Shown: positions 5,336 through 24,000 of the stretch, one piece after another
How the letters are laid out: each line of letters begins with the position of its first letter
Numbering within the stretch: the first letter of the stretch is position 1
Position numbers and translations under genes: made by a program
NCBI RefSeq assembly: GCF_000085865.1
Contig: NC_013511.1
Coordinates: forward strand, 270,516 to 294,515
Direction: 5' to 3'
Length of the DNA stretch: 24,000 bases
DNA from: Metamycoplasma hominis ATCC 23114
GTDB lineage: Bacteria; Bacillota_I; Bacilli_A; Mycoplasmatales; Metamycoplasmataceae
Notes under the pieces: model-generated
Told to the model about the DNA's origin: nothing
What the model saw: the letters and a program-made list of their open reading frames with translations, nothing else
The model's database searches: none

Positions 5336-5367
5336 AAAAAAAACTCAGATTGAACTGAATTTTTTTA
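5336..5367 (-). terminator. Intrinsic terminator downstream of ftsZ (bidirectional shape)
   Basis: The stem is actcag (5343-5348) paired with ctgaat (5355-5360), 6 bp including one wobble, with a 6-nt loop. An A-run and a T-run flank it. It lies about 65 nt after the ftsZ stop codon. Confidence 0.45.
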
Positions 5368-5429
5368 TTTTTTAAATGGCAATAAAGATAATTAATTGCA
5401 TTTTTTTAAAACAGATTTCTTACATCATC

Positions 5430-6575
5430 TTAGTGTTTTAATATATCTGCAAGTTCATCGTTTGAATCTTCATCATTATCCATTGAAAAAAATGATTGTG
5501 TTTTAAATGTTCCTTCAGATACAAAGAATTCCTTTGTTTCATCGTTAACATAATTTAAATCGTCTTTTTTTATTACATTGATTACTTCATCTTGAATTTG
5601 ATCAATGTCTTTAGGAGCATCTTTTCTTAATCCCGTGGCGATTACCGAGACAAATAGCTCACCTAATTTGTTGCTTTCTTCAGATTCTAGAGTTGTTATA
5701 CCAAAAATAATGTTAATTTCATTACCAACAATTTCCCGCATAGCTCCCAAAGCACTTTGAATTTCATTTAAAGTTACTTTTTGAGAAGCACTGAAATTTA
5801 CTATTGCATCGCTAGCCCCAACAACACTTGATTCTAAAATTGGGCTTGTTATTGCAGATGTGATTGCTTTTACAGCCCTATCTTGGCCATTTGCTTGGCC
5901 AATGCCGATTAATGTTTCACCTTTATTTTTAATAATGGTTGATAAATCTGCAAAATCAAGATTAATAATGCTTGGGGTGGCAATAACATCAACTATTGTT
6001 CTAATAGTTTGCTTTAAGACATTATTTGCGCAAATAAATGCATCTGAAAAAGAAATATTTCCATATTGTTGTAATAGTTTATTGTTTGAAATAACAATAT
6101 ATGAATCAACACATTTTTTAATTTCTTGTAAGCCTTGCTTTGCAATTCTCATTCTCTTTGGACCTTCAAAGTCAAACGGAGTAGTTACAACTGCAACTAC
6201 TAAAGCATTGCATTCCTTGGCTATTTGTGCAATCACGGGCGCTGCACCTGTGCCGGTTCCACCACCCATTCCTGCAGTTATAATTACTAGATCAGCTCCT
6301 TGCAATCTACTTTTGATTTCTTCACGTGAAGATTCAGCAGCAGTTTTGCCAATTTCAGGGTTAGCACCCGCGCCAATTCCACGTTCATCACCTAAATGTA
6401 AAACGCATTCTTGAGGAAATTTTGCTAATACTTGTTTATCGGTATTGGCAGCAATAATTTGAAAACTATCTAAATGGCTATTTATCATAGTTTCAACACT
6501 ATTATTTCCGCCACCACCTACTCCAATAACAATTATTTTTGCCACCGGGTTATAATTATTTAATTCTTTTGCCAT
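5430..6575 (-). CDS. ftsZ: Cell division GTPase FtsZ (381 aa)
   Basis: Complete ORF ending in TAA. It carries the tubulin signature GGGTGTGAAPVIA, the N-terminal IGVGGGGNN motif and NTD. An AGGAG RBS sits at 6584-6580. Confidence 0.95.
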   Translation of the reverse strand: MAKELNNYNPVAKIIVIGVGGGGNNSVETMINSHLDSFQIIAANTDKQVLAKFPQECVLHLGDERGIGAGANPEIGKTAAESSREEIKSRLQGADLVIITAGMGGGTGTGAAPVIAQIAKECNALVVAVVTTPFDFEGPKRMRIAKQGLQEIKKCVDSYIVISNNKLLQQYGNISFSDAFICANNVLKQTIRTIVDVIATPSIINLDFADLSTIIKNKGETLIGIGQANGQDRAVKAITSAITSPILESSVVGASDAIVNFSASQKVTLNEIQSALGAMREIVGNEINIIFGITTLESEESNKLGELFVSVIATGLRKDAPKDIDQIQDEVINVIKKDDLNYVNDETKEFFVSEGTFKTQSFFSMDNDEDSNDELADILKH

Positions 6576-6582
6576 AGAACTC

Positions 6583-7650
6583 CTAATTTATATCGTTTAG
6601 CATTAAATTGTAATACTTTTTGGAATTACTATAAACTTCAATTGTAAATAATTCCCTACTAATTTCATTATTTAAAGCATTTTGTTTGATTTGACATTCT
6701 AAAATATTATCTATTGCAAGCATTTCGCAACTTAAATATTCATTTTTGATTTCATATTCAAAGTCACTAAATAAGTTAATTTTTTCATTTTGAATTAATA
6801 TATTATCAAAAAGTTTTAATTCGCTATTGAAATATAATTTGCAAACCTTTGAATCAATTTTATAATTATTAACAAAAGTTGCAACGCTAGTTAATAATTT
6901 ATTTATAAATTCGCCTAATATATTCTTTATTATTGGAGCAACATTGCATTTGTAGGTTAAACAATTTACAACTTCGCTAAATCAATTGCTTTCTGTACTT
7001 AATAAATTGCGTTGTAACATTCTTGCTTTTAATTTGTTTAGTCCTAAATCTAATACTTGGCTTACTATATTTGATTTATTAATGTTTAAAATAAATTTAG
7101 CTTTATCATCTAATACATCAACAAAAATAGCTACTTTTTGTTTTGGATTTTTAAACAAAACTGAATTTGTCTTTAAACTATCTAAGCAAAATATTTTGGC
7201 AATTTTTAAATCGTTGCTACTAAAAATTTCTTGCAATCTTAGACTATTAGCATTTGATATTGTTTTTAAAGAATAAATTTGCTTAATATTAGTTTTTTTA
7301 ACTAGTTTAAATTCCAATATTTTTTGGCCTATATTATTGAAGTTTGATCTAATATTTTTTAAATTACTAATATTAAAATTGTCGTTATTTAAGGTTAATA
7401 GTTTACTATTTATATTTCATTTGCTATCTTCAGACAACATAACAATAACTTCATTTATGCTTGCCGATATTAATTTTTGAATTTCATTCTTTGTTTGCTT
7501 TATAAAATTTTTTATATCGCTTTCAGTTAAATAAATATTATTAATTGCTTTTTTATAAATGCAAAAAGATAAAGTATTAGTTTTTTCCATAACTTCTACT
7601 TCGATACTATTTTTTAAAAATTTATATGCAGCAATAATAATTTTTTTCAT
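6583..7650 (-). CDS. Hypothetical division-cluster protein in the ftsA position (355 aa); highly divergent, possibly a degenerate FtsA-like protein
   Basis: Track fragments 7417-7650 and 6982-7317 are in frame and joined by tca (TGA) at 7417-7419 and 6982-6984. The true stop is TAG at 6585-6583, which overlaps the ftsZ RBS. The gene starts 4 nt after the rsmH stop. I could see no canonical actin-fold DxG phosphate motifs. Confidence 0.7.
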
Positions 7651-7654
7651 TTAA

Positions 7655-8557
7655 CTAATCCATTAATTTTGTAATAACGCGTAATTTTGCGCTTCTTGAT
7701 CTTTTGTTGATTTCTTCTTCTTTACTACTTGGAAAAATTACTTTTTGATGTCACTTATGAGTTTCAACAATTAGTATTTTTTTTAGCTTAGGGTCAAAAT
7801 AATTTAAATTTTGATAAAACTTTTTAACTATAACGTCTTCTTTACTATGAAATGTTATAATCGCTATTTTTCCGTCTTTTTTTAATAAATTAGGAAGTTG
7901 GCTTAGCATTTCACTTAAGGCATTTAGCTCATCATTCACTGCTATTCTAAAAGCTTGAAAAACTGCTTTAGAAGGATTTTTTTGTCTTACTATTTTAGCT
8001 GGCAATGAATCCTTTATTATTTGATTTAACGTAAATGAATCAGATATTGGTCGATTTTTTACAATTGCTTTCGCAATTAAATTACTTAATTTTACATCAG
8101 CATTAGATTGCAATATATCTATAATTTCTTTTTCAGTTGCATTATTAATAATTTCTTTTGCAGTTAGAGTATTATCTAAATCCATTCTCATATCTAAATC
8201 GGAATTGATTGAATAAGAAAATCCTCTATTTGGATCATCTAATTGAGGACTAGAAACTCCTAAATCTGCTAATATTCCATCGACTTTATCGATATTTAGT
8301 TTTTTTAGTTCACAAGTAATGTTTCTAAAATCACTTTTTATTAAAATAAAGTTTTGGCTTATTTTTATTAATTTTTCTCTACTTTCGTTTATAGCTTGAA
8401 TATCTTTATCAAAACAAATTAATTTTCCAGTTGTTAGTCTTTTTAAAATTTCTTGGCTATGACCACCACGGCCTAATGTTAAATCAACATATATTCCGTC
8501 TGGCTTTATTGATAATTGTTCTATTACTTCATTTAATAGAACTGGAATATGTTCCAT
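7655..8557 (-). CDS. rsmH: 16S rRNA (cytosine1402-N4)-methyltransferase RsmH/MraW (300 aa)
   Basis: The N-terminus is MEHIPVLLNEVIE...DLTLGRGGHS. The track ORF ends at TGA (7751-7753). Reading through gives WHQKVIFPSSKEEEINKRSRSAKLRVITKLMD, which contains the conserved RSRSAKLR tail, and then TAG at 7657-7655. Confidence 0.93.
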
Positions 8558-8998
8558 TTAGAACTTAACTCCTGCTTCAAATAATTTTTGAGCCAAGTCA
8601 TTTACATTATCATCATTTTCATAGTAGCTTTCTTGTTCATCATAAACTTCTTTAGCAAATAATTCACAAGTATCACCAGTTCCTAGGAAAACAACTTCTT
8701 TGTCGATAGCGGCTTTATTTAAAAGATGTTTGGGAATCATGATTCTGTTATTTTTATCAGGAGATACAACTTCAGTATTTCCAAAAATGTAGCGAATAAA
8801 ATCTCTTACGTTTTTGTTAAGTGTGTTTCCTTCTTCCAATTTAGTTTTCATTTTTTGAAACTCAGAAACCGTTCTTAATACTAAGTTTTTATCTATTCCA
8901 ATTGTGATATAGAATTCCTTGCCTAATTCTTGTAGTAATTTAGGTGGAACAACAACTCTATTTTTATCATCAATTTGGCGATAATATTTACCAAACAT
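8558..8998 (-). CDS. mraZ: Transcriptional regulator MraZ (two SpoVT/AbrB-like halves)
   Basis: The two DxxxR half-motifs are DDKNRVVVP and DKNNRIMIP. The ATG at 8998-8996 lies 8 nt downstream of GGAGG (9011-9007). The track's start at 9004 is a GTG immediately adjacent to the RBS and so is less likely. The TAA stop abuts the rsmH ATG. Confidence 0.9.
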   Translation of the reverse strand: MFGKYYRQIDDKNRVVVPPKLLQELGKEFYITIGIDKNLVLRTVSEFQKMKTKLEEGNTLNKNVRDFIRYIFGNTEVVSPDKNNRIMIPKHLLNKAAIDKEVVFLGTGDTCELFAKEVYDEQESYYENDDNVNDLAQKLFEAGVKF

Positions 8999-9033
8999 TC
9001 CCACATCCTCCCACTATCAACTTAATTCTAACA
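8990..9033 (-). promoter_or_regulatory. Putative mraZ promoter (-10 with TG extension, TGTTAGAAT) followed by GTGGG direct repeats at 10-bp spacing (candidate MraZ operator)
   Basis: The minus strand reads TGTTAGAATTAAGTTGATAGTGGGAGGATGTGGGAATGTTTGGT. GTGGG occurs at 9014-9010 and 9004-9000, and a degenerate TTGGT at 8994-8990. The -10 hexamer is at 9030-9025. Confidence 0.3.
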
Positions 9034-9187
9034 TATAAATCAAGTATTTTTTAATTTTTTATAAATAAAAATAAAAAAGAAGGCAAAAAAGCATTAGCCC
9101 TCTTGCAATAGACCATAGTAATTATTTTTTTAATTGTTTTATTAAAAAATAAATAACTGTATAAGTTTTTTGTTAAAATTAAAATAT

Positions 9188-9263
9188 GCTAGTTTAGCTC
9201 AGTTGGTAGAGCAATTGATTCGTAATCAATGGGTCGGGGGTTCGATCCCTCTAACTAGCACCA
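9188..9263 (+). tRNA. tRNA-Thr (anticodon CGT), CCA encoded
   Basis: The 76-nt cloverleaf was folded by hand. The acceptor is gctagtt/aactagc, the anticodon arm is attga-ttCGTaa-tcaat, and the T-loop is ttcgatc. Confidence 0.9.
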
Positions 9264-9353
9264 AATGCACAAAGTAAGCGCCAAAAATAAAAAATAAAAA
9301 ATTTATTAAAAAATTAATTTTTTTTAGTTATAATAATTAAGCATTTATTAAGT

Positions 9354-9428
9354 GCCGACTTAGCTCAGCGGTAGAGCAGCTGGCTGTTAACCAGTTTGTC
9401 GTTGGTTCAATCCCAATAGTCGGCGCCA
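9354..9428 (+). tRNA. tRNA-Asn (anticodon GTT), CCA encoded
   Basis: 75 nt. The acceptor is gccgact/agtcggc, the anticodon loop is ctGTTaa, and the T-loop is ttcaatc. Confidence 0.9.
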
Positions 9429-9432
9429 TTAT

Positions 9433-9508
9433 GGCCCTATGGTGAAGCGGTTAACACATATGGTTTTCATCCATACATTCGTGGGTTCAAGTCCCGCTAG
9501 GGTCACCA
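9433..9508 (+). tRNA. tRNA-Glu (anticodon TTC), CCA encoded
   Basis: 76 nt. The acceptor is ggcccta/tagggtc, the anticodon arm is tatgg-ttTTCat-ccata, and the T-loop is ttcaagt. Confidence 0.9.
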
Positions 9509-9510
9509 TT

Positions 9511-9586
9511 GGAGAATTAGCTCAGCTGGGAGAGCATTGCCCTTACAAGGCAAGGGTCGTGGGTTCGAGCCCCTCATTCTCCACCA
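9511..9586 (+). tRNA. tRNA-Val (anticodon TAC), CCA encoded
   Basis: 76 nt. The acceptor is ggagaat/attctcc, the anticodon arm is ttgcc-ctTACaa-ggcaa, and the T-loop is ttcgagc. Confidence 0.9.
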
Positions 9587-9604
9587 TTTGTTTAAATACA
9601 CCGC

Positions 9605-9627
9605 AAAAAAGGCCAACCGGCCTTTTT
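9605..9627 (+). terminator. Rho-independent terminator of the tRNA cluster
   Basis: In aaaaaggcc-aacc-ggccttttt the stem is 9 bp with a GGCC core and a 4-nt loop, followed by a T-run. Confidence 0.75.
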
Positions 9628-9666
9628 ATTTTTCATTTAGATTTAAATTAAATGTAATTTTTATAT

Positions 9667-9701
9667 AAAAAACTCGTAACCTTTTTGATTACGAGTTTTT
9701 T
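9667..9701 (-). terminator. Terminator after the ABC exporter operon (bidirectional shape)
   Basis: The stem is actcgtaa (9672-9679) paired with ttacgagt (9689-9696), 8 bp, flanked by A- and T-runs. It lies 12 nt beyond the TAA at 9713. Confidence 0.7.
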
Positions 9702-9712
9702 ATATCTAGTTT

Positions 9713-11536
9713 TTAATCATCAAATTGTGAGTAATATAACCTTGCATATTTTTTATTTAATTCTAGCAATTGCTTATGTGTTCCTTGTTCAATAATACGA
9801 CCATCATCCACAACTAAGATTAAATCAGCATTTTTAATCGTGCTTAGACGGTGAGCAATAACTATTGATGTTTTACCAACCATGATATTTTCTTTTAATG
9901 CTTGTTGAATTATTTTTTCTGTATTAGAATCCACGTTCGATGTTGCTTCATCTAGTATTAAGATTTTTTTGTTTCCTAATATTGCTCTAGCTATTGAAAG
10001 AAGTTGTTTTTCTCCTTTAGATAATATTGAAGTGCTATTATCAATTATAGTATCATATCCATGTTCTAACTTTTCAATAATATGATGAGCAGATGCTAAT
10101 TTTGCTGCCCTTATTACATCTTCTTTGGTTGCTTTTGGATTTCCTACTAAAAGGTTATTTAAAATACTTTCATTAAACATAAAGCTATCTTGTAAAACAA
10201 CTGCCGTAAAATCTCTTAAACTATCTTTTGAAATTTCTCTTAACTCTATTCCATCTATCTTTATTGAACCTTTTTCATAATCATAAAAACGATTCAATAA
10301 ATTTATAATAGTAGTTTTACCTGCTCCAGTTTCTCCAACTAAAGCAATAGTTTGTCCTGCTTTTGCATTAAATGAAGCATCTGTTAGTTGATATTTAGGC
10401 GAATTTTCATTATATCTAAAATATACATGATCAAATGTTATATTTCCAACAGGATTTTCTATCACAATTCCCTTTGAGTGGTTTTTTATGTGTGTGCTTG
10501 GTAAACTCAAAAGTGTATTAACCCTAACGGCAGATGCAATACCAATTCTAGCATAAACTAATATAGTAAGCATTGATTGAAGTGTTGATAAAAAACTATA
10601 TATAAGTGTTAAATAACTTATTAAAAATCCATGTTCTGCATTTGTATTAAAAAGCCCATAAACATGAATATTATTTCCCTTTAATACAAGTGTTACAGTA
10701 ACTATTAATATAACCAAAATATTGTTAGTAAAAACTATTCAAGGATTAATTATTTGGTTATTAAGATCTCCGGTGAAGGCTGTGTTAAATATGTTTCTTG
10801 CTATTTGTTTACCATGATTATTAACTTGTTCTTGTTGTTCAAAAGTTTTAATAATTTTAGAATTAGTTAGCATTTCTTCAACAAAAGCGTTTAATTCCCC
10901 AAAATGTTTTCTGGTTTGAATAAATGCTTTTTGAGCTTTTTTAGTAATTAATATCCCTATAAATGAAAATAAGAATAGAACAGGTAAAACAACAGCAGAT
11001 AAAACCAGACTAACCATTGATAAAAATATTACAGATAAAATAACATTTATAGCACATTGGATTAATTCATTTAATAGTTTAAATATTGTTTCAGATAAAC
11101 TATTAATATCATTTACTAAAATAGAAATAATATTACCTGATTTTTGATTATCAAAATACGAAACAGGAATATATAAAAGATTTTTCATGGCGGTTTTTCT
11201 TATATTCTCGCAAACTGAAAAAGTTATTTTTACAAAAAATACCCCTGAAACATATCTAAAAATTCCATACAATATAAACGATATAACCAAACATGAAGCC
11301 ATACCTATAAATAATTTTAAATTAAAAGGTGTTTTATGATCTAATACATCTTTTGTTAAACATATTGTAAAAATATATCCAATTAAAAATGAACCTATTG
11401 CATAAAAAATTGCATGAAAAAATGAAAACAAAACAGCCAATCAAAATTTTGTTTTTGATTCACCTGAATATTTAAAAACTAATTTAAACAAAGTAATAAA
11501 TGAAAGTTTTTGCTTTTCTTTAGTTCTTTTTTTCAT
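9713..11536 (-). CDS. ABC exporter half-transporter (TMD-NBD fusion, 607 aa) with a canonical catalytic NBD and a deviant signature motif
   Basis: Fragments 9713-10717 and 10739-11440 are in frame, joined by TGA at 10739-10741 and 11441-11443. The ATG at 11536 is preceded by GGAGG. Motifs are Walker A GETGAGKTT, Walker B ILILDEATS, H-loop IAHRLST and signature LSKGEKQ. Confidence 0.9.
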
Positions 11537-11550
11537 CACTGCCTCCTTTT

Positions 11551-13335
11551 CTATTGGCTTAATTGGTTATTGTATGATTCATTATAATATGAACATGATT
11601 TCATTAATTCTTCATGATTTCCTTTATCCAACATATTTCCATCAGATAAAACAATAATTTCATCAGCATTTTTTATTAATGGCAATTTTTGGCTAATTAT
11701 TATAGTTGAACATGAATATTTATTTTTTATATTTTGTAAAACTTGGTGTGCAGTAATATTATCTAAAGCACTAGTTGAGTTATCTAATATTAAAATTTTT
11801 GGTTTAGTTAATAAAGTTCTTGCAATTGAAAGACGTTGTTTTTGGCCACCTGAAAGGTTTGTTGCCCCTTGAGTAATGACATGATCTAAATTTTCTTCAA
11901 ATTTATAAACAAAATCATATGCACAAGCGTCACGTAATGCTTGATTTATTTCTTCATCTGTTGCATCATTTTTAGCAAAAAGCATATTTTCTTTTATTGT
12001 TCCTGTATTTAATAGGGCATCTTGGTAAACAATTCCGATTGTTTCATGTAAATTTTTTGTATTAACTTCTTTAATTTCATTATCCCCAATTAAAATCGAT
12101 CCTTCATTATATAGATAGTTATTAACCAATAAATTTGCAAGTATGCTTTTACCACTACCAGTAGGACCAACCAATCCAAGAGTTTTTCCAAACGGTAGGC
12201 TAAAACTTATATTGTGCAAAGTATAATTTGAATTTGAAGAATAATATTTAAAGCTTAAATTTTCAACTTTTAAATCGAAGTTTTTTGTTATTTTTTTGCC
12301 ATTTGATACATAAATTTTATCTTCGTTAGTATTTAATACTTCTATAACTCTAGTAGCAGAAATTTTTCCTTTTACAAATGCTGAAATAAATACTGCCCCC
12401 AATATAACGCCAAACGTTACATAAAATGAATAGTCAATAAAAATATTAAATCTTACAATTGTATCATATGTTGCTACATTGGAAATAACATCATGAACAA
12501 CTAATGAATAAAGCACCACAACAAATAAATTGAATATTCCAAAGAATAAAGGAGCAATTCCTACAAAAATGCTACCAGCATTAACATTAAAATTCTTTCA
12601 TGTTTTATTTATTTTTGCAAACTTTTCTTCTCTATTTTTATATAAATCATATATTTTTATTAAACGAGATCCTAATATATTTTCATCAACTTGCTTAGTT
12701 ATTTCTTCAACGGCTAATTGAGCCTTTTTAATTGAAGGACTTGCTTTTTTTGCCATAATAGAAACTATTGTTAAAATTATTGGAACTAACAAAATTAATC
12801 CTATTGCCATTTTTACGTTATTCATGACGGCTAAAATACATCCACCAATTATCATTGAAATAGCCCTTGTTAAGACGTTTGTAGCACTTATTAAAAATTC
12901 TCAGAAAACCGCAATATCATCACTCACCCTAGTAATTAATGATTCGGGTTTCAAATCAGATATATTTTTCAAACTTAATGTATTTAATTTTCTAATGAAG
13001 TTTTCTCTAATATATCTACTACTTCTTTCTGCTGCATATACAATTAAGCTAGTGCAGCCAAATGTTAAAGACATTGAAATTATAGTTAAAACTATTATAG
13101 AATAAATCATATAATTACGAGCATTAATAGCGTTATTAAATGTAAAGTTTATTAATCCATTAAAAAAACTTAAATCTACTTGACTATTTTTATTTTCAAT
13201 AAAAAGCAATCTAATGAATTGAGAAATCAATGTAGGAGTAATCAATTCAAATATAACTGAAATTAAAGAAATAAAGCTTCCTATAATAAACAATATTTTA
13301 ATTTTTCATGGTAAAAATTTAATAAGTTTCAACAT
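11551..13335 (-). CDS. ABC exporter half-transporter (TMD-NBD fusion, 594 aa) with degenerate Walker B and H-loop
   Basis: Fragments 11551-12519, 12598-12855 and 12901-13293 are all in one frame, joined by TGA codons. The ATG at 13335 is preceded by GGAG, and the stop is TAG at 11553-11551. Motifs are Walker A GPTGSGKS, signature LSGGQKQ, Walker B ILILDNSTS (Glu replaced by Asn) and H-loop position IISQKL (His replaced by Gln). Confidence 0.9.
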
Positions 13336-13435
13336 AATTTCTCCTTCTTTTAAATGTTTTTTATTGCCACTTTCAAGACTAATTAATAAATTATAATGAA
13401 ACATAAAAAAAAGTAATAATTTAATGCAAAAAACA

Positions 13436-13466
13436 CGAAAAAAAAGCGATTTTTCGCCTTTTTTTG
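13436..13466 (-). terminator. Intrinsic terminator between the lipoprotein locus and the ABC operon
   Basis: The minus strand reads A-run, GGCGA-AAAA-TCGCT, then T8. The stem is only 5 bp and includes one G-U pair. Confidence 0.5.
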
Positions 13467-13472
13467 TTTAAT

Positions 13473-14009
13473 TTATTTTTTTAAACTAATTTTATTTATA
13501 AATTCAACTTCTATTCCATTTCATTTAGCAGTGATTGTATATTTTATATATTCTTTACCTTTGTTTGTATGTTTTTTAACTGAGATTTTTTCAAATGTTA
13601 ATTCTTCTGGTAATTTGTATTCAAATTTAGAAATATCATCTTTAATTGCTTCATCAACTGTTTTTTTATCGCCAATGTATTTTACAGTTACTAATTTTCC
13701 AAAATGTTCTTTTAAAACTATTTTTTGCATAAAGTTTTTATCTTCATTTATCTTTTCATTAACATTGACACGTTTAGATGACATATTGCTAAAATCATTA
13801 TTTTGAAAATCTTGAATAGAAACTATAGAAACTCTAATTGATTTTACTTTATTATTTTCTATTTTAGGAAATGAAAAGATATAAACATTTTGTAAATTAA
13901 CCATATGTTTTGTATATTCAAACGCAAACATTGAATGTTTTAATTTTAATGTTGTTTTATCATAATCAAAATTTTGAACAGAAATGTAATTATCACCTTT
14001 TTCAATCAT
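13473..14009 (-). CDS. Hypothetical protein (178 aa from ATG 14009; a TTG at 14021 is also possible) with no signal peptide; possibly the frameshifted C-terminal part of the upstream lipoprotein
   Basis: The track ORF 13521-14021 reads through TGA at 13521-13523 to TAA at 13475-13473. It overlaps the end of the upstream gene (13990) by 20-32 nt in a different frame. No GGAG-type RBS precedes it. Confidence 0.55.
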
Positions 14010-15744
14010 TTCTTTTTTCAATGTCTTTGCTTAAAAGACTAATATTTTTCAATTTTTCTACAAACATAAATGTTGAAATATTTTTAACTTCATCGTTAGA
14101 TAATTTATCTTTGTTTTCTTTGAAATATTTCAAGAATGCATCTTTATTTAATTCTTTTACATCTTGGTCTTCAATAGTTGATGTTGGGGCTTGTTGGTCA
14201 TCTATTTCAGTTTCATTATTTTGTTTTCTAATCTTATTATATTCATCAACACCCAATTTACTTAAATCAATTTCAACAAATTTTGATTTCTTAGTACTAT
14301 TTTCATAATCTTTAAATGAAACAGTAAGATTAATCAAACACTTATCGCCTTCAAATTTTAATTCGCCTAATGTGTAATTAATTTCACTGTTTTTATTATT
14401 AATTCAGTATGATTTATTTTCTAATTTGTCAATAGATTTCTTTGAAATGTAATATTTGTCTTTACTATAAAATGGATAAATTGACGTTTCTAAAGCTTTG
14501 TTTAAAAGTTCATCTTGTTTTTCAAATGATAGCAATGCAATATTATCTAAACCGTTTGCAAATTTATCTAATTTAACTTCAATAGTTTTAGATTCACTTA
14601 TTTCTTTATTTAAAAGACTTGACAAAGTTAAAGTCAATGTTATTTTTTTATCTTCAACTTTTAAATTACTTAATGCTACTGAATATGAGGCTTGGTCGTA
14701 GCCTTGAACTGCAAAATTTGGCTTTTTATCAAAATTGTTTATTTGTTTATTTTTTAAAATATCTTGATATGACTTGGCATTTGCAACTAAAACATTTGTT
14801 TTTTCAATTTGATCTTTTAGTTCTTTTCTTGCCTTATCTATTTTTTCTTGCAATTCTGGAGTTAATTTAAAACCTTTGATTTCATAAATATATTTTTGAC
14901 TTGAGATTTGTTTATTTTTATATGATAAATAGTAAAGAATTGACAAGTCATATGTTCCATCTTCTCCTGTATTTTTAGTAATCTTTAATGAATCTTTAAC
15001 AATTGAAAAGTTTTCTTTAATAGTTTTTAAAAATACTTTTGATGTGTCCGCGTCTTTTATGTATGTTTCTTGTTTGTTAGGATAGTCAAAGACTAGATTT
15101 TTTGAAACTTCTTTAAAATCTTCTTCTGAAACTTGATCTAATCCAGAATCTAAGTTTCCCAAATTACTTTCATAAACCTTGTTTGAAATAATATGTTTAC
15201 CATTTTGTTTAAAAATTGCAACTTTATATTTCAAAATAAAGTTTCCTTTTTCATCTTTTGTTAATAATAATTTAGAGTTTAACTTGTCTCCACTTCTAAG
15301 AGGTTTTTCAGGATTTACCAATTGAACAGATACGCCTGATTTAGAATTTCATTTAGCAATAGCAAATTCTTGATTTTTAAAATCATATGCCCCTTCAAAA
15401 GCCATGATATTTTTGTTATTTCTTTCAAAAAGAATTTTGTATTTGTCTAGATTATTTAAAACCTTTTTAATAAATTCTAGATTTTCAGCATTTCATGTTA
15501 TTTTTGAAATTGATTCTTCACCATATTTATCAGCATCATTTTTATTTGTTTCTTCTTCATGACTTGGATCTTCTGGTTTAACTTCAGGTGTTGTTCCTGG
15601 CTTTTCACCTTCTGGTTTCTTAGGTTCTTCTGGTTTAACTTCAGGTTTCTTTGTTTTTATGCAACCTGCTGCCACTAATGGTATTGCAAAAACCGAGGTT
15701 GCAACACTACCTAAGGCTAATAAAATTTTTGTATGTTTTTTCAT
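13990..15744 (-). CDS. Surface lipoprotein of unknown function (584 aa)
   Basis: The N-terminus is MKKHTKILLALGSVATSVFAIPLVAAGC|IKT (signal peptide plus lipobox), followed by the linker KPEVKPEEPKKPEGEKPGTTPEVKPEDP. Fragments 15493-15744, 14404-15321 and 14002-14337 are in frame, joined by TGA codons. TAA lies at 13992-13990. Confidence 0.8.
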
Positions 15745-15990
15745 TTTTTATATTTCTTTTCCCTTTTTCTTAAATTAATAATTTAAAAATTTATCACACG
15801 AATAAAGGCTCAAGTTCAAATGACTGGTTTTTTCTTTAAAAAAGAAAAATAAATAACCGTTTGGTTATTTTTTATTTAAAGATAATGTTTTTAAAAGAAA
15901 TAAAAAAATAATAAATTACAAAAATTGTTACATTGATTTTTTGATTTAGCAAATATTATAATGTGTTTTTTTAGCCTATAAAAATATTTA

Positions 15991-16018
15991 AAAAACTAGC
16001 ATTTTAAGCTAGTTTTTT
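15991..16018 (-). terminator. Terminator downstream of the minus-strand tRNA cluster
   Basis: The stem is actagc (15995-16000) paired with gctagt (16008-16013) with a 7-nt loop, flanked by A5 and T5 runs. Confidence 0.6.
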
Positions 16019-16022
16019 AATA

Positions 16023-16098
16023 TGGTACATCCTGTGGGGCTCGAACCCACGACCCAGGGATTAAGAGTCCCTTGCTCTGCCAACTGAGCTAAGGATGC
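16023..16098 (-). tRNA. tRNA-Lys (anticodon CTT), CCA encoded
   Basis: The reverse complement folds with acceptor gcatcct/aggatgt (G1-U72 wobble), anticodon arm aggga-ctCTTaa-tccct and T-arm gtggg-ttcgagc-cccac. Confidence 0.88.
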
Positions 16099-16198
16099 GT
16101 GTTTTTGCGTTATTTATTATAACATAACTAAAACATTTTTTTAAAATTAAACAAATAAAAAGTAGCGTTTGCTACTTTTTTGTTACAACTTGATGATA

Positions 16199-16283
16199 TG
16201 GTACGCGAGGAGGGACTTGAACCCTCACGCCGCAAAGCATTAGTGCCTAAAACTAACGTGTCTGCCAATTTCACCACTCGCGC
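16199..16283 (-). tRNA. tRNA-Leu (anticodon TAG), long variable arm, CCA encoded
   Basis: 85 nt. The acceptor is gcgcgag/ctcgcgt, the anticodon arm is ttagt-ttTAGgc-actaa, the variable arm is tgctttgcggcgt, and the T-arm is gaggg-ttcaagt-ccctc. Confidence 0.88.
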
Positions 16284-16286
16284 ATA

Positions 16287-16362
16287 TGGTGCCGTTTATA
16301 GGACTTGAACCTACGACCTACTGATTACAAGTCAGTTGCTCTGCCAACTGAGCTAAAACGGC
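16287..16362 (-). tRNA. tRNA-Thr (anticodon TGT), CCA encoded
   Basis: 76 nt. The acceptor is gccgttt/aaacggc, the anticodon arm is actga-ctTGTaa-tcagt, and the T-loop is ttcaagt. Confidence 0.9.
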
Positions 16363-16570
16363 TTTTGTAAATGCTTTATTATTATATAAGGAAATTTTAA
16401 AAAATTTTACATTTTTATTCAAATTTAAAATTTTAATTATTCATAATATCTTAAAATAAATGTTGAAATATTATTTTTTACTATTACTATATGATTTTTT
16501 TATTAACTTTAATTTTTAAAGATAATAAATTAATATTTTTAATGTATGATTACATGGCAAGGACAAAATT

Positions 16571-17434
16571 ATGTTTTATAAGTTATATAAAAAAAGAGGC
16601 CAATCAAGTTTTTTTGCAATAAAAAAATTTGCAAAAAATAATAATATCAATAAAGTTGGACATTGTGGAACATTAGATCCCGAGGCTGAAGGTCTTTTAA
16701 TCGTAGCAACAGATGAAGATACAAAGGCCTTGTCTTTAATTGAAAATCAAAACAAGGAATACTATGTGGAAGCGAAATTCCATTACTCTTCAGATAGTTT
16801 TGATTTAGGAACATATGTAACTAAAATACAAAATTTTCAAATAATAACTAAATCTCAAATTATACAAGCACTAGAAATATTAAAAAAACAAACAAAACAA
16901 GTACCACCAATTTATAGTGCAAAAAAAATTAATGGAACAAGAGCATACAAACTTGCTAGAGATAATAAAGAATTTAGTTTAAAAGCCAATGATATAAAAA
17001 TAAATAATTTAGAATTAATTGAATTTAATGAAGTGAATCAATCAATCATCATTAAGGTCAATGTTTCAAAAGGCACATATATTAGATCATTGATTCATGA
17101 TTTAGCTAATATATGTAACACAGATGCAGTAGTAGTTGTTTTAAAGCGAATTAAAATTGGCAATATATGTTTAAATGGTCAAGAAGAATTTGAAAAAATT
17201 ACAAACTTAAACGAACTTTTTAATGTAAAATTATTTAAGCTAACCAAAAATGATATTCAAATATTAGCAAACCAAAATTCAAATAGTTGCTACTTTGAAT
17301 CATTGAAAAATTTTTGCGGAAACATTATTTTTATTTACTTGAATAACATAGTAGGATGAGGAAAATCAGAATTTGGAAATGTAACTATTTTCAAGCGATT
17401 TTTTAAACGCCTTACGATGTTAATTTCTAGCTAG
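16571..17434 (+). CDS. truB: tRNA pseudouridine(55) synthase TruB (287 aa)
   Basis: The catalytic motif is KVGHCGTLDPEAEGLL. The track ORF ends at TGA (17357-17359). Read-through continues to TAG at 17432-17434, which overlaps the RBS of the next gene. Confidence 0.9.
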
Positions 17435-17442
17435 GAGTAAAC

Positions 17443-18246
17443 ATGACAAAATACAAAATGATAGTATTTGATATTGATGGAACATTGTTGCCATTCGGAG
17501 TTACTCAATTAACACCTAGAATGCAAGAAATGTTTGAAAAATTAAAAGAACAAGGCTATGTAAATGTGTTGTGTTCTGGTCGTGATATTTTTACAGTGGG
17601 CGCCCAAATAGATAACCCTTATGTTGATTATTTTATAGGTGCAAATGGAACTTTTATTCTTGATTTAAGAACAAAAGAATATATTTTTGAAAAAACTATT
17701 AATTACAAAGATTTTGTTGAATTTAGAAAATATGCAAGCGAACATAAATTATCTTTTTCTTTTGTTGGAAACAAATGGGGATATTACAATGAATTATTTA
17801 ATATAGATCATTGATTTTACAGACCATATAAAGACAAATTTATTCCAGAAAAAGAATTCGAATCGCAACATGATAAAAATTATTTAATTACTATTTCAAC
17901 TCCAACACCATCTATAGTAGCAGCTGATTTAGAAAAATTCTTCAAAGAAAAAAATCTTGATTTATGAATTCTAGCTCAATGAAATGGTGGCATATTCATC
18001 TCTGCTAAAGGAATAACTAAGGCTGTAGGCTTAAAAATACTAGGAGATTTATTAAACATTTCTCTTGATGAAATGGTAGCATTTGGTGATTCAGAAAATG
18101 ATATTGAAATGCTTGAAAAAGTAGGATTAGGTATTGCTATGGGCAATGGAGAAGATGTTACTAAAGATGCTGCAAATGAAATTTGCTTGCCAGTTACTGA
18201 AGATGGTCCATATTGAAAATTAAGAGATAAAGGATTTTTTGACTAA
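17443..18246 (+). CDS. Cof-type HAD-IIB family phosphatase (267 aa)
   Basis: Motif I is IVFDIDGTLL and motif IV is FGDSENDIEML. Four in-frame TGA codons (17812, 17965, 17980, 18214) are read as Trp. The stop is TAA at 18244-18246, and AGGAG precedes the ATG. Confidence 0.88.
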
Positions 18247-18249
18247 TAA

Positions 18250-18275
18250 ATTTCAACCTTATGGTTGATTTTTAT
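18250..18275 (+). terminator. Rho-independent terminator after the HAD gene
   Basis: tcaacc (18253-18258), loop ttat, ggttga (18263-18268), followed by a T-run. Confidence 0.6.
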
Positions 18276-18315
18276 TTATTTTATTTTAAAATACTTATAT
18301 TAGGAAAAAAAACAC

Positions 18316-19041
18316 ATGGCAATTACAAGTACACAAGATCCAAAAATTCTAAAATATAAAAAATTACTTACTCCCAAAGGCAGACAAGAACAACAATTGT
18401 TTATTGTTGAAGGTTATCATTTAGTAAAAGAAGCAATCGAAGCAAATATAGTTATTGACATTTTAGAATTCAATGACATACTAACTTATAAAAACTCAAC
18501 TCAAGTAACTAGAGCAATTATTAAAACATTATCAACAACGCAAACACCTCAAAATATCATTGCAATTTGTAAAATACAAAATTTAAATATTAAAGCAAAT
18601 AAAATAATAGCCCTTAATAAATTACAAGATCCCGGAAATATTGGTACTATTTTTCGACTTGCTAAATCTTTTGGCTTTGATAGTGTTATAGTTGAAAATA
18701 TAGATATATACAATGAAAAGATAATTCGTTCATCACAAGGAGCAATGTTTTCACTAAACATTATTAAGACAAATGATTTAAGCAAAGAACTGTCAGCCTT
18801 TAAAAAAGATGATTTTTTAGTTTATAGTACAACATTAAATAAAAATTCAATTAAGCTCAATGACATTGATTTTAGAAATAAAAAAATTGTTATTGTTTTA
18901 GGGAATGAAGGAAATGGTATAGACGAAAAAATTATTGACTTAAGTGATTTTAATGTTTACGTTCCTATTGAATTTGAAAGTCTCAATGTTGCTTGCTGCG
19001 GCGCAATTATTATGAATAAAATTTATAATGGAGATAAATAA
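18316..19041 (+). CDS. SpoU/TrmH-family RNA 2'-O-methyltransferase (241 aa)
   Basis: Motifs are LQDPGNIGTIFRLA, LGNEGNGI and IPIEFESLNVACCGAII, the last being the SPOUT knot motif. The ORF is complete and ends in TAA. Confidence 0.85.
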   Translation: MAITSTQDPKILKYKKLLTPKGRQEQQLFIVEGYHLVKEAIEANIVIDILEFNDILTYKNSTQVTRAIIKTLSTTQTPQNIIAICKIQNLNIKANKIIALNKLQDPGNIGTIFRLAKSFGFDSVIVENIDIYNEKIIRSSQGAMFSLNIIKTNDLSKELSAFKKDDFLVYSTTLNKNSIKLNDIDFRNKKIVIVLGNEGNGIDEKIIDLSDFNVYVPIEFESLNVACCGAIIMNKIYNGDK

Positions 19042-19913
19042 TGCAAGTTTTTGATTGAGATTTTAAAGCAAAGTTAAACATAAATGAACCTTTAACAATT
19101 TGTTTAGGTTCGTTTGAAACATTACATTTAGGGCACAACGAATTATTTAAAATAGCAAAAGATTTAAAGCAAAGTTATCCAGATCAAAAATTAGCAATAA
19201 TGATGTTTAAAAATCCAGTTAAAAATTCTCAGGTATTAACAAAAAAAGCAATGCAACCAAAAACTAGATTATATACATTAGCAATGTTGGGATTTGATTA
19301 TGTTTTTTTAGTTGATGTAAACCAAACGATATTGAATTGTAGTTATAGTGATTTTATTCAAGGATTAAAAATAAACAACGTTAAAAATGTTGTTTGTGGT
19401 CAAGATTTTAGGTTTGGGTTCAATAGAGAGGGTAACATTGATAAATTAAAAAAATATTTCAATGTATATGTTGCCAATGAATTAAAGGTAAATAAACAAA
19501 AAATTTCTTCAACAATAATCAATGAATTTATTGAAGAAGGAAACATAAATGGCTTGAACAAATTACTAATAGACAAATATTCAATAATTGTAAATTCTCA
19601 AAAATTTAATTTCAAATATCCAGAACATTTAAATCAATTAAAAGCAGGAATTTATATTGCCAATGTCGTTTGAAATAACATTGAATATCACGGCTTAATT
19701 TTTATAAATAAAAATCAATTTGACTCAAATAATAACCTGCAAGAAAACAACATAATTTATTTATTTGATATTGATTATTTTATTTCGAAATATCAAGAAC
19801 TTTACATTGAATTTTTGCAATGCATTAGACATATAAATAATAATAGTGAAAATCAAATTTCAACAAATGATATTGAAATTGCAAAGAATTACTTCATTGC
19901 CAACAAAAAATAA
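19041..19913 (+). CDS. ribF: Bifunctional riboflavin kinase / FAD synthetase RibF (290 aa)
   Basis: The ATG overlaps the preceding stop (TAATG). The N-terminus LGSFETLHLGHNELF carries the nucleotidyltransferase HxGH motif. In-frame TGA codons lie at 19056 and 19671. The track fragment 19200-19673 is internal and in frame. The stop is TAA at 19911-19913. Confidence 0.85.
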
Positions 19914-19921
19914 TATTAAAC

Positions 19922-19956
19922 AAAAATAGCAAGTTTGTAACACTTGCTATTTTTTA
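19922..19956. terminator. Bidirectional terminator between the convergent ribF and helicase genes
   Basis: The stem is atagcaagt (19926-19934) paired with acttgctat (19942-19950), 9 bp, with a 7-nt loop. A5 lies upstream and T6 downstream. Confidence 0.75.
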
Positions 19957-19976
19957 ACAAAATATATTATTTTAAT

Positions 19977-22900
19977 TTAATCTTTGTTGTTCAAGTCAAT
20001 ATATTCAATATCGCCGTTTGAAATAACTTTAATTAACCCTAAATTATTTAAATATCCATATAGATCATTTAATTTTGAAATATTATTTTCTGTTCTTGCT
20101 ATTAGTAATGTTTTTAAAATAGTATTAGTTAAATTGTTTTTTAAAATAGAACTTTTTGAATTGTTTAAAACTTGTTTTATTAAATCAAACATTTCCAACG
20201 AACTTATTTCTGATATTTTTCTATTGTCACAATCCTTTGGCATTCTAAAAGTATTTGGCTTTGAAACATCATGATAAAAGATTTCGCCATCAGGATTTAT
20301 TAATTTTTCTAACATTTTATTATTAACAAAATAATTTATAGAATTTTCACAAAGAAATTTATAAGTATATTCGTCTTTATTTAAAGCTAGGTTCACGAAT
20401 ATATCTTTTATCATTTTATTGATTTCTTTTTCTCTATAAGTATGGCCATAATTAAACATTTGTTTAACAATTTCATAGCCATTTAACAAAGGATTTCTTT
20501 TGTTTGACTTTTCTATAAAATTTAGTGTCTTACGATATGAGTAATTAAACGGAAGTCATTCTTCAAAATTAAAATTATCTCTTTTTTCAATAATTTCAAA
20601 TTGACTATTTTCAATCGTTTTATATTCATTTTGCTTTACAACAAATTTTTTTTGTTTAATTTGATTTACTTTATCAACTATTTTTTCTAATTCTCTTTTT
20701 TTGTTTTTAAATCAATTTAAAGATCAAATTCTGTGAATTATTCAACCTCTTGACTCAAGTAGCATTTGTCTAATCGCATCTCTATCACGAGCGCTTTTTG
20801 ATGAATGATATGTGGCGCCATCGCATTCAATACCTAAAATATATTTCGATGGATTTTTATCATCAACAATTGCTAAATCTATTTTAAATTTTGAACATCC
20901 CACTTGAGTATTTACTTTAAATCCAAGCTTCTTAAGTTCATCATAAACTTGGATTTCAAACTCACTATCAAATATTTTAGTGTCATCTTGTAATATATCA
21001 TCTGATTTGCTGTCGTAACCAAATTCTGCAAATTGTAAATATTGCTTTAAAAATCTTAGTCCTTCGTTTTTTAAATCGTCTACTTTTAAATCAGAATATG
21101 ATATTGAAGATACAACAATAGTTGCTTCCTTGGCTCTACTTATTGCGACGTTTAGTCTCTTTTCACCGCCAACATTATTTAATGGTCCAAAGAATCTTGA
21201 CAATCTTCCGTTTTTATCCCAACTATTTGTAATTCCTAAAATAATGATGTCTCTTTCATCACCTTGAACACTTTCAATGTTCTTAACAAAAATTTTATTT
21301 TCTGTGTCTAAATCCATATATTCAGGATTTTCATTCATAAATAAGAATAATTTGTGATCAATTAAGTTAGCTTGTTTTAAATTAAACGTTACAACTCCAA
21401 ATGTTTTTGTATTGCCATAATAATCTTTTAATTGCTTTATTAATTCAATGATTCTATTTGCTTCAATTTCGTTTGTTTGATCTTCATAAATTCCATTAAC
21501 CTTAATAAATGAAACGCCTTCAAAAGGAAGCAATTCCCCGTCTTTCTTGGCGGTTTTTTGATATGTTGGAAAAGTAATTAATTTATTATCATAAACGAAC
21601 TTATTTGAAGGCAAAATTAATTCTTCAAATTTTGAACGATAGTGTCATTTTAATGCAACTTGTCTAAATGAGCTTTGCATTCTTTCAAGAAGTGAATCAT
21701 AATCATTTTCTTCGTTGACTATTTCTTCGTCTTCGTTTGGTTCTTGCTCGCTAGACATAGTTTTAAAGAAATTAGTTGGTGGCAATTGATTTATATCACC
21801 AGCAATAATAATTTGTTTAGCCTTAATCATTGATATCAAGGCATTTTCTGTCGTTAATTGAGAAGCCTCATCAAAAATTACACTATCAAATGTAATGCTA
21901 CTATCCGCTAAATATGTACTTAACGAAGAAGGAGACATCATAAAACAAGGCTTAATATTTTGAATTAAATTTGGAATTTCTTTAAATAGTTTTCTGATCG
22001 GTTTTTTATTTCTAACTTTTGAATATTCCTTCTTTAAAATTTCTAATTCATCATTGTATATTGTCGAATTTAACGTAGGCAAATTGTTTGATAAATTTTC
22101 AATTATTTTGAATTTAGCAATTTCATTTAGCTTTAAACAAGAGTCTTTAAAAACATTGATAATTTTTTCATATTCTCTATCGTTTCAATCTGCTAAATCA
22201 ATTGATAAATAGTAATCAATTAAAAGTTGATAAAATCTTTTATTAAAAATATTTTCAATACTATTTTGTTTTAAACAATCAATATCTAGCAATTCAATAG
22301 CATCCACAAAATCATTAGTAAAGGGGTTGTCTTTTAATTCTTGTCTTGATTTTATATAACTACAATATGCTTCAGGATATTCATCAGAATCAATTAAAAA
22401 ATTTAGTTTTTTTATAAAATCATTAACTTTATAATTTGAATTTGAATAATCTACATATTTATTGTTAAAGTAGTCATTGAATTTATCTTCAAAAGTCATT
22501 GAATTTTTATATAAATTTATGTAATTATTTGTTAATTGAATATGGCTTAATAAAAAGTTAAAAAAGCTAATTTTTAAATTTTGATCAAATTTTAATTCAC
22601 TTAATTGATTATTAATAATTTCATATTTAGAAAATATATTTAGTTGTTGCTTTAAACTATTAAGATCCATTTCATTATAGTTTTCTTTAAATAAAAAAGG
22701 AATTTTATTTGTTAAAAGCGTAATTGCATTTTTAGCAAGTTGAATGTTGTTTAATGCCACTAAATCTTTTAACAAGTTTTTGTAATTTAAATTAGAAGAT
22801 ATAAAATTAATTTTTAATTCTTTTTTTATTGCTCTATATCTCTTTGAAAAAAGACGCTTAAAAATATTATTTCGAGATTTCATAAAATCTAAATTCTTAT

Positions 22901-24000
22901 AAATTTCACTATTAAAAATATTTTGATTATATCTTGAAAGAATTCAGTCAATATCAGGTTGAATTCTTTCTTTTTGCAATAGTATTTCATTTAGGGTTTG
23001 TGTTGCATTTGTTTCATAATACGAAAAAATTTCTAAATATTTTGGATTTATATCTATATCTTGTATATTTGAAAAAATTTTAAAAAATGAATTAAATAAT
23101 GAATAATTGCTATTTTTAATATATTGTTGATAATTGTTTGGAATTTCAAGATCTAAGAAATTGATTAGGCTTTGAATTTCATTAATTAAATGGCTAGAAA
23201 TCTCTTTAATGTTTTCTAAATCTTGAAGCTTTACATCCAAAATCGAAAGCCCGTATCATAAACTTTCCTTAGCGTTGAAATTTATATTTTTATAATTTAA
23301 ATTAAACTTATTTAAACTACTTTGAATTTTAACAAACTGTTCATTATCCATTTTTTCAAAATCTCTAATATCGAAATTTATACCTTTTGTATTGGCAAGT
23401 AATTTTTGATAATCACCAATCATTAAATATAATGAGCGACCTAATGGTTTTCTATTTGATAATATCTTTCTAACAAAATCATTCATTTTTTCTAACGAGT
23501 CGCTATATAAGTAATCATTATTAGCAATAACTTCATTACTTACTTTTTTAAATTTTTGACCGTCTTGCAATGTTTCATACAAATCATTAGAAAAATCTTT
23601 TTTATTGCTGTTATTGCTATGAATAAGTAAAATAAAATTAGCAAATCCAAGATTTTGGATTGATTTATAAACAACATCCAAAGCAGCCTTTTTTTCAGCA
23701 ACAAATAGAACCTTTTTATCTCTTGCAATTAATTCACTTATTATATTTGCTATAGTTTGAGATTTTCCAGTTCCTGGAGGACCTTGAATAATAAAACTAT
23801 TTCCTTTAATTGCTGATTGAATAGCTGCTTCTTGCGAAGAATTAGTCATTAGGCAGTGATAATAGCCTTTAGGAGAAACTATATTATCAACTTCTTCTTC
23901 AGAATACAAATATTCAGAACTAAAAACATTGTTAATCCCTGTCATTGCATTCATAATTTCTGAATTAATGATATTATCTTTATTTTTATCAACATCTAAA
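19977..24000 (-). CDS. Giant Upf1-like SF1 helicase fused to a Vsr/DUF559-like (PD-(D/E)xK) nuclease and a DUF3320-like C-terminal region; 5' end lies outside the window (more than 1340 aa seen)
   Basis: Six track fragments (19977-20489, 20742-21614, 21645-22082, 22185-22883, 22944-23240, 23256-23954) share one frame. I checked every junction: only TGA intervenes, and the apparent fragment starts are internal TTG/ATG codons. Helicase motifs are motif I GPPGTGKSQT (23783-23760), VLFVAEKKAALDVV, motif II DEASQ (21872-21858), GDINQLPPT, HYRS, VQGDERD and RLNVAISRAK. The nuclease core is KIDLAIVDD...LGIECDGATYHSSKSARDRDAIRQMLLESRGWIIHRIWSLNW. The frame stays open to position 24000, and the stop is TAA at 19979-19977. 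Confidence 0.88.

Follow-up and report, generated by a model that had tools for sequence, protein, structure and literature searches.

What use is a 4.7-kb helicase-nuclease gene to an organism with a genome of about 0.67 Mb, among the smallest of self-replicating cells? The question is raised by a locus of Metamycoplasma hominis ATCC 23114 that we examined in a 24,000-nt stretch of DNA (hereafter the window), read with genetic code 4, in which TGA encodes tryptophan. One end of the window carries most of a gene for a DUF4011 helicase-nuclease. This gene is real and intact, and it encodes one large protein that joins a helicase motor to a nuclease. We favor, with moderate confidence, the view that the protein serves M. 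hominis as a defense-type, single-polypeptide, ATP-driven helicase-nuclease that acts on foreign DNA, i.e., that of a phage, an integrative and conjugative element (ICE) or a plasmid. The gene carried an annotation before this work, and ICE insertion at its locus was also on record; the protein is an addition to a known, partly characterized family, adapted to Mollicutes, and not a new kind of system.

Reading frame and domain architecture

The window has a G+C content of about 25%, and its long genes are fragmented when read with translation table 11. With code 4, the minus strand contains one stop-free frame of 1340 codons at 19980-23999, which remains open where the window ends and is closed by a TAA stop codon at 19977-19979. 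TGA occurs eight times in this frame and TGG once, and table 11 splits it into six open reading frames (ORFs; 19977-20489, 20742-21614, 21645-22082, 22185-22883, 22944-23240 and 23256-23954). A preliminary description, made from the letters of the window, had merged these six fragments into an ORF of more than 1340 residues that runs off the edge, and the code-4 frame bears this out. The closest protein found in a protein search, P0001, is 98% identical, 1572 residues long and annotated as 'DUF4011 domain-containing protein [Metamycoplasma hominis]'. Its gene and the window copy differ at 63 nucleotides, with no indels and no frameshift. A length comparison with this ortholog indicates that 232 N-terminal residues are missing from the window and puts the start codon about 696 nt past its edge; the complete gene spans about 4.7 kb and encodes 1572 residues.

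The differences between the window copy and P0001 comprise 39 synonymous and 24 non-synonymous changes, giving a ratio of non-synonymous to synonymous substitution rates (dN/dS) of 0.136. The helicase-nuclease gene is under purifying selection. Values for the flanking genes range from 0 to 0.17, based on few changes. That the gene is an inactive or decaying remnant, either a pseudogene or a copy that has lost catalysis, is hardly credible. Such a remnant is suggested by the six ORFs seen under table 11 and by one strain that carries an ICE-disrupted copy. However, the interruptions are all TGA in a code-4 organism, there is no frameshift relative to the second strain, and the dN/dS of 0.136 is that of a constrained gene; moreover, the catalytic motifs are intact and invariant, and the M. 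bovis ortholog has been detected as a protein. The first three of these observations led us to reject the pseudogene reading.

The order of the domains is DUF4011, a Upf1-like superfamily 1B (SF1B) helicase that is split by a 515-residue helical insert, an MTES_1575 nuclease, and a tandem winged-helix tail. The parts that lie in the window are given below. Residue numbers refer to the window protein unless stated otherwise, data on the full protein come from P0001, and AlphaFold2 (AF2) models were built on an ortholog segment that is 98% identical to the window protein.

19977..23999, minus strand: DUF4011 helicase-nuclease, partial coding sequence comprising the C-terminal 1340 of 1572 codons and the TAA stop (code-4 ORF; 98%-identical ortholog)
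23589..23846, minus strand: RecA domain 1A, N-terminal part, with the Q-motif region, Walker A and motif Ia (Pfam AAA_11, residues 52-137; motifs invariant in 17 homologs)
23760-23783, minus strand: Walker A, GPPGTGKS (residues 73-80; lysine 79 is K311 of the full protein)
22026..23570, minus strand: all-alpha insert of about 515 residues in domain 1A, between motif Ia and motif II (AF2 model m498eafbcf74b)
21741..22025, minus strand: RecA domain 1A, C-terminal part (Pfam; motif positions; motifs invariant in 17 homologs)
21858-21881, minus strand: Walker B/motif II, VIFDEASQ (residues 707-714)
21777-21809, minus strand: motif III, IIAGDINQLPP (residues 731-741)
21105..21698, minus strand: RecA domain 2A (AAA_12), including the motif IV-like WHYRS (Pfam AAA_12, residues 768-965, E 5.6e-21; PDB profile and fold matches)
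21249-21269, minus strand: motif V, VQGDERD (residues 911-917)
21129-21158, minus strand: motif VI, RLNVAISRAK (residues 948-957)
20670..20960, minus strand: Vsr-type PD-(D/E)xK endonuclease domain, REase_MTES_1575 (Pfam MTES_1575, 2e-35, residues 1014-1110)
19980..20522, minus strand: tandem winged-helix tail at the C-terminus, DUF3320-like and divergent (hhalign; AF2 and Foldseek)
20193-20225, minus strand: conserved R..I..I...E motif in the tail

The helicase is a Upf1-like SF1B enzyme by its motifs, Pfam matches, PDB sequence matches and fold. Motifs Q, I, Ia, II, III, V and VI were all located and are invariant in 17 homologs, and Pfam AAA_11 matched residues 52-137 and a second stretch (4.6e-23). 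Searches of the PDB with the single sequence and with a profile returned, for the helicase, only IGHMBP2, Sen1/SETX, Upf1/NAM7, Dna2, Aquarius and nsp13, with sequence matches from 1e-10 to 4e-19. With a mean pLDDT of 80, the AF2 model of the helicase region was matched to SETX, Dna2, IGHMBP2, Upf1 and Sen1 with a Foldseek probability of 1.00. Membership of this family predicts ATP-dependent translocation in the 5'->3' direction. The DUF4011 domain (PF13195) lies outside the window, at residues 19-167 of P0001 (Pfam E 3.5e-31).

The insert in domain 1A is modeled as about 25 helices with pLDDT values of 85-95 (m498eafbcf74b), arranged in a helical array or stalk. Because Foldseek aligned just ~290-440 columns of the 942-residue model to canonical Upf1-like helicase chains, the insert appears to have no counterpart in the PDB, as judged from these short alignments, of which the aligned residues were not itemized. 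The sole further profile hint was a faint match to a designed coiled coil in the PDB. When Mollicutes members of the family were compared with non-Mollicutes members by hhalign, both the DUF4011 N-terminus (100%, E 1e-46) and the insert (100%, E 1.6e-44) were found to be homologous, from which it follows that the six-part architecture is ancestral to the family.

For the nuclease, MTES_1575 scored 121 bits (cutoff 38.2) and DUF559 scored 21.6 bits (cutoff 20.6; 2e-4) in Pfam. Its motifs are KIDLAI (residues 1039-1044), GIECDG (1056-1061), ARDRDAIRQ (1070-1078) and GWIIHRIW (1085-1092). Together they give the invariant pattern D...ExD...RDRD...GW..R.W. All 18 sequences compared have the same D, E and D (D59, E76 and D78 in the numbering of the aligned segment), and catalysis is putatively assigned to D1041 in KIDLAI and to E1058 and D1060 in GIECDG. 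By fold, the AF2 model of this domain resembles the DUF559-like NGO0050 (3hrl, TM 0.71); the catalytic domain of I-Bth0305I, which is Vsr-like, also matches (3r3p, TM 0.67).

Pfam DUF3320 (PF11784) gave no match to the tail even at E<=10. The tail nevertheless appears to be a homolog of DUF3320, too divergent for the Pfam hidden Markov model (HMM): a profile of mycoplasma tails aligned by hhalign with DUF3320-bearing tails at 99.7% (E 4.5e-26), or at 99.4% (E 7e-22) when the end of the nuclease domain was left out, and the aligned stretch of a relative's tail (P0080) is where Pfam DUF3320 falls. The AF2 model of the tail has pLDDT values mostly above 85, and Foldseek matched it to tandem winged-helix proteins, i.e., Nse1/Nse3, ESCRT-II, kleisin winged-helix domains and DndG.

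Much of this architecture had been recognized in the preliminary description, which proposed a DUF4011-type helicase with a complete SF1B/Upf1-like motif set, a compact Vsr/DUF559-like PD-(D/E)xK core and about 250 further residues. Each motif that it quoted was located, by residue and by nucleotide, and the Pfam matches are far beyond chance. Profile searches gave significant matches to DUF4011, AAA_11, AAA_12 and MTES_1575 and a weak one to DUF559, the nuclease core is recovered by both profile and fold, and 248 residues follow its last motif, GWIIHRIW. The DUF3320-like tail that it also proposed is upheld by hhalign and by the tandem winged-helix fold, whereas the Pfam model is silent.

Relation to known helicase-nucleases

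The best PADLOC model was PDC-S37, with which the full-length ortholog scored 960.7 bits over model positions 11-1524 of 1550 and the window fragment 839 bits over positions 248-1524. The next models for the full-length ortholog were Hhe (462 bits) and MkoA (130 bits). The best NCBIfam model was NF058533, 'anti-phage protein ProA' (P0001, 960.4 bits, E 2e-288, residues 14-1530; fragment, 823.6 bits); neither score reached the equivalog cutoff of 1500 bits. The ProA alignment begins at model position 361 of 1903, leaving the first ~360 positions without a counterpart. With the NCBIfam Hhe model, NF042953, the full-length ortholog scored 674.8 bits, which does not reach the equivalog cutoff of 2000 bits, and the fragment 593 bits; the best stretch was residues 621-1372. 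By these profile scores, the protein belongs to the PDC-S37-type branch; its relationship to ProA is below threshold, and that to Hhe is more remote.

The likeness to PDC-S37, a single-gene phage defense candidate, extends to the size (~1550 residues) and domain order, and the HMM matches from end to end. PDC systems are guilt-by-embedding candidates that were found inside BREX, DISARM or Type I restriction-modification (R-M) loci and were not individually tested (Payne et al., 2024). PDC-S37 was nominated from such loci, whereas in M. hominis the gene has tpiA on one side and the ribF/SpoU/HAD/truB genes on the other. With ProA, one continuous alignment covers DUF4011, helicase, insert, nuclease and most of the tail, but ProA proteins have about 1900 residues as compared to 1572 in M. 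hominis.

Hhe resembles the M. hominis protein in being a single-gene defense protein with DUF4011, an SF1 helicase and a Vsr nuclease. It protects against lambda, T3, T7 and PhiV-1, and the Vsr-domain mutation E1731A abolishes protection (Gao et al., 2020). The family is therefore not functionally uncharacterized, as the preliminary description had stated. Residue E1731 of Hhe corresponds approximately to the glutamate of the ECDG motif (E1058), an estimate that was made from HMM coordinates and not by alignment to the E. coli protein. Triggers of Hhe are T7 class II DNA-metabolism genes and g40 of Bas63, which are toxic when co-expressed with it, and phage-encoded anti-Hhe factors exist, including a phage ORF that counters Hhe. 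The two proteins differ in that just the C-terminal half aligns well (~48% coverage with a plasmid-borne Hhe) and in that Hhe models have about 1800-1900 positions.

In MTES_1575 proteins, a Vsr restriction endonuclease (REase) is followed by two winged helix-turn-helix domains that overlap DUF3320, and these are fused to an SF1 helicase (Anantharaman et al., 2013). The M. hominis protein has the same Vsr REase, winged-helix pair and SF1 helicase, whereas the HEPN and transglutaminase domains of the prototype gave no Pfam match in it. The housekeeping enzymes Dna2 and AddAB and the defense enzymes Hna, Nhi and MkoA likewise couple a motor to a nuclease within one polypeptide or complex, and Dna2 and MkoA have the Upf1-like SF1B core in common with the M. 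hominis protein. On the other hand, they depart from it in nuclease type and domain order: the nuclease of Dna2 is RecB-like and N-terminal, and Hna is a 3'-5' exonuclease on single-stranded DNA, the cutting of which is gated by the partitioning between its ATPase and nuclease activities and by the phage single-stranded DNA-binding protein. For the Mokosh proteins MkoA and MkoC, similarity (129-130 bits) is confined to the helicase 2A region and does not amount to a full-length match.

Distribution, variation and function

A search of genome contigs found the family across most bacterial phyla and in several lineages of Archaea. Its results were confirmed by tblastn with table 11, in which code-4 genes fragment and rank low, so that the at least 600 rows show the breadth of the family and not its presence or absence in mycoplasmas. 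Plasmid records contained 15 full-length and 452 partial matches. One of these, in the Acinetobacter baumannii plasmid pOXA58_005078 (L092 963-16641), encodes a DUF4011 protein of 1718 residues, and its flanking genes are a large site-specific integrase and a cassette of a WYL-domain protein and a ThiF-family adenylyltransferase; the region looks like an accessory or defense islet. A phage origin was rejected, as 50,697 phage records gave one partial match; phages almost lack the family.

Within the genus Metamycoplasma (~23 named species), only M. hominis and [M.] phocae were found among the 120 matches listed, and the best match outside M. hominis in that list was Mycoplasmopsis primatum (54-55% identity). 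The gene thus appears patchy within the genus. A neighbor-joining tree, calculated without support values, placed every Mollicutes copy in one clade, including that of an Acholeplasmatales metagenome-assembled genome. Inside this clade M. hominis was joined to primatum, procyoni and opalescens rather than to phocae, in disagreement with taxonomy. The genomic location differed in all eight mycoplasmas examined, and the neighbors were mostly housekeeping genes. R-M neighbors are not present at the M. hominis flanks and were seen, among the mycoplasmas examined, only in M. canis and M. gallopavonis. In M. canis (L091 14277-18686), a KilA-N protein, an N6_N4 methyltransferase and a ResIII helicase, resembling a Type III R-M system, lie within a few kb; in M. 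gallopavonis (L005 12879-16451), an N6_Mtase/Eco57I-type methyltransferase and insertion sequence transposases do so.

A second protein with AAA_11, AAA_12 and MTES_1575 matches is encoded in [M.] phocae about 5 kb downstream of the DUF4011 gene (L089 16398-18707; 1074 residues). Its gene is cut by the end of the locus and no DUF4011 is listed for it; it may be a paralog with a different N-terminus. In M. flocculare (L007 15776-17329) and in three related Methanobrevibacter genomes (L054, L059 and L063), uvrC is located 2-3 kb from the DUF4011 gene. This proximity represents at most two independent cases and is probably a coincidence; it is the sole hint of a link to repair.

The neighbors of the family were also tallied in a rough census that took in 141 flanking ORFs at ~37 loci; it had no matched control and is used here qualitatively. 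Defense-type neighbors were SLFN/AlbA_2 (four), GmrSD_N (three), Cas2 (two), PD-T4-6-like kinases (two), mad6 (two) and MkoA (two), while most neighbors were ordinary genes. The census agrees with the guilt-by-embedding study, which remarks that candidates of this kind often show no enrichment in defense islands (Payne et al., 2024).

Within M. hominis, the 90% cluster of the protein contains 230 distinct sequences, and the 15 that are listed all have 1571-1572 residues. In DUF4011, insert and tail, 8-10% of the sites are variable (insert, 8.5%), as compared to 1-3% in the catalytic cores (1.1% in the C-terminal part of domain 1A). This pattern fits conserved chemistry combined with evolving recognition surfaces. 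Strain 4788, from the clinic, carries the element ICEHo4788 within the DUF4011 gene, beside ribF, and because of this interruption we regard the gene as dispensable.

These observations are what leads us to favor a defense-type enzyme: the placement in defense families and the anti-phage activity of Hhe, the intact catalytic residues, purifying selection, variation concentrated outside the catalytic cores, breadth across phyla, carriage on plasmids, patchiness, incongruence of the tree, varying location with R-M, KilA-N or insertion sequence neighbors in two species, and dispensability. We infer the polarity, the substrate, the trigger and the foreign-DNA target, and with them the defensive role in Mollicutes. 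In the mechanism that we propose, the Upf1-like SF1B motor would load on single-stranded or branched nucleic acid of an invading or replicating element and translocate in the 5'->3' direction. The DUF4011 N-terminus, the helical insert and the tandem winged-helix tail would provide substrate recognition and autoinhibition. Once the enzyme is engaged, the Vsr-type, Mg2+-dependent endonuclease (D1041/E1058/D1060) would cut the DNA and bring the element's replication to a halt, which might also be costly for the cell. Such a working mode would be like that of Hhe and, more broadly, like that of gated helicase-nucleases such as Hna.

Several points weigh against a defensive role. The scores stay below the equivalog cutoffs of both ProA and Hhe. 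PDC-S37 is a candidate by embedding, for which defense activity is not reported in Payne et al. (2024), and the library searched yielded no primary description of ProA, whose name comes from the title of the NCBIfam model. For members of the Mollicutes clade, the role would rest on family analogy, and the single clade to which they belong in the tree indicates long residence. In M. hominis the tpiA/ribF locus is fixed and has no adjacent defense or mobile genes, and full length in 15 of 15 listed alleles at a fixed locus is unusual for a defense gene. Furthermore, the neighbors of the non-Mollicutes homologs are just mildly enriched for defense genes, and a DUF4011 gene is part of the core genome in P. 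aeruginosa. The preliminary description had suggested a defense role, and this is supported by the best-scoring families (PDC-S37, ProA and Hhe) but not by the retention of the gene in sampled isolates between housekeeping genes without defense neighbors. It had also named universal conservation with housekeeping synteny as an outcome that would speak against defense; the situation within M. hominis comes near to this, whereas the patchiness in the genus, the discord of the tree and the ICE in strain 4788 do not fit it.

The main rival to the defense reading is a domesticated genome-maintenance enzyme which, like Dna2 or AddAB, processes broken ends, stalled forks or recombination intermediates of the cell's own chromosome and leaves foreign DNA alone. 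We consider this unlikely, though by no means negligible. It would agree with the fixed housekeeping locus and the full length of the 15 listed of 230 M. hominis alleles, with a dN/dS within the range of the neighbors, with the Mollicutes-specific monophyletic clade, with the presence of Dna2 and AddAB among the fold matches, with the core status in P. aeruginosa and with uvrC near the M. flocculare and Methanobrevibacter genes. Mycoplasmas are not known to have RecBCD or AddAB, which also counts for it. Against it, the gene is dispensable in strain 4788, and most Metamycoplasma species are missing among the 120 matches listed. Synteny is not conserved between species, the closest HMM families are all defense systems or defense candidates, the family is plasmid-borne elsewhere, and the uvrC cases are two at most if counted independently. 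The helicase core could also point to an enzyme acting on RNA or RNA:DNA hybrids, with a function in termination, R-loop removal or RNA surveillance and a nuclease that cuts the displaced strand. Its best sequence and fold matches, Sen1, SETX, IGHMBP2 and Upf1, are RNA or RNA/DNA helicases, and read-through and antisense transcription have been reported across the locus. We find this very unlikely, since the motor is fused to a DNA endonuclease of Vsr type and to a tandem winged-helix tail of the kind that binds DNA, Dna2 as a DNA enzyme scores equally well, and the known phenotypes of the family give no pointer to RNA.

To a further reading we assign only a small probability. A defense-family enzyme, long kept as a near-core gene in one Mollicutes branch, would have become its main end-processing or anti-ICE enzyme in place of the missing RecBCD/AddAB, and the ICE insertion in strain 4788 would be no accident, as it would knock out a factor that restricts the entry of ICEs or foreign single-stranded DNA. 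If the protein is a working barrier, it could help explain the poor transformability of M. hominis and the spread of ICEs, prophages and tet(M) elements, and it would offer a compact, partner-free PDC-S37/ProA-like member for mechanistic work. If genome maintenance is its true function, it would be an example of a defense-type module that was domesticated in a minimal genome.

Genomic surroundings in M. hominis

In two M. hominis contigs, tpiA lies upstream of the DUF4011 gene, separated by a 241-nt gap. Downstream and convergent are ribF, a SpoU-type methyltransferase gene, a Cof-type HAD hydrolase gene and truB, and the same genes are present in the window. The preliminary description had placed the N-terminal part of the protein and any upstream partner genes past position 24000; the 232 residues are indeed encoded there, but no upstream partner gene was found in the two contigs, tpiA being the next gene. 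The 66-bp spacer that separates ribF from the helicase-nuclease gene, measured from stop codon to stop codon, contains one further feature:

19922..19954, no strand assigned: hairpin, stem of 13 bp, with flanking A-run and T-run

A terminator scan of this spacer found one candidate, with 0.0 expected in shuffled sequences, and the hairpin is probably a shared bidirectional terminator. An operon with partner genes was rejected in view of tpiA and the 241-nt gap upstream and of convergent ribF and the terminator downstream. Published RT-PCR experiments on strain 4788 detected transcripts that cross the junction between ribF and the DUF4011 gene, with read-through and antisense transcription across the locus.

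Elsewhere in the window, a second giant code-4 ORF of ~1719 residues is present on the minus strand at 4-5181. It starts with a signal peptide and lipobox (…LATISC) and consists nearly entirely of BspA-type LRR_5 repeats (Pfam 4.9e-113 for the first 483 residues); this very repetitive ORF is also fragmented by table 11. A division/cell-wall-type cluster occupies 5433-9013 on the minus strand, with mraZ at 8561-9013, rsmH at 7658-8557 and ftsZ at 5433-6587. The cluster includes a 355-residue protein without a Pfam match (6586-7650). In [M.] phocae (L089), the DUF4011 gene is located just downstream of the same mraZ-ftsZ-type cluster. At 13476-15747 on the minus strand, a predicted lipoprotein of 584 residues (13993-15747) overlaps an ORF of 178 residues (13476-14030), and both are without a Pfam match. 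The GC skew of the window is negative at 1-16000 and 20001-24000, where the genes are on the minus strand, and positive at 16001-20000. Its sign follows the coding strand, so that the switches reflect gene orientation and not a replication origin.

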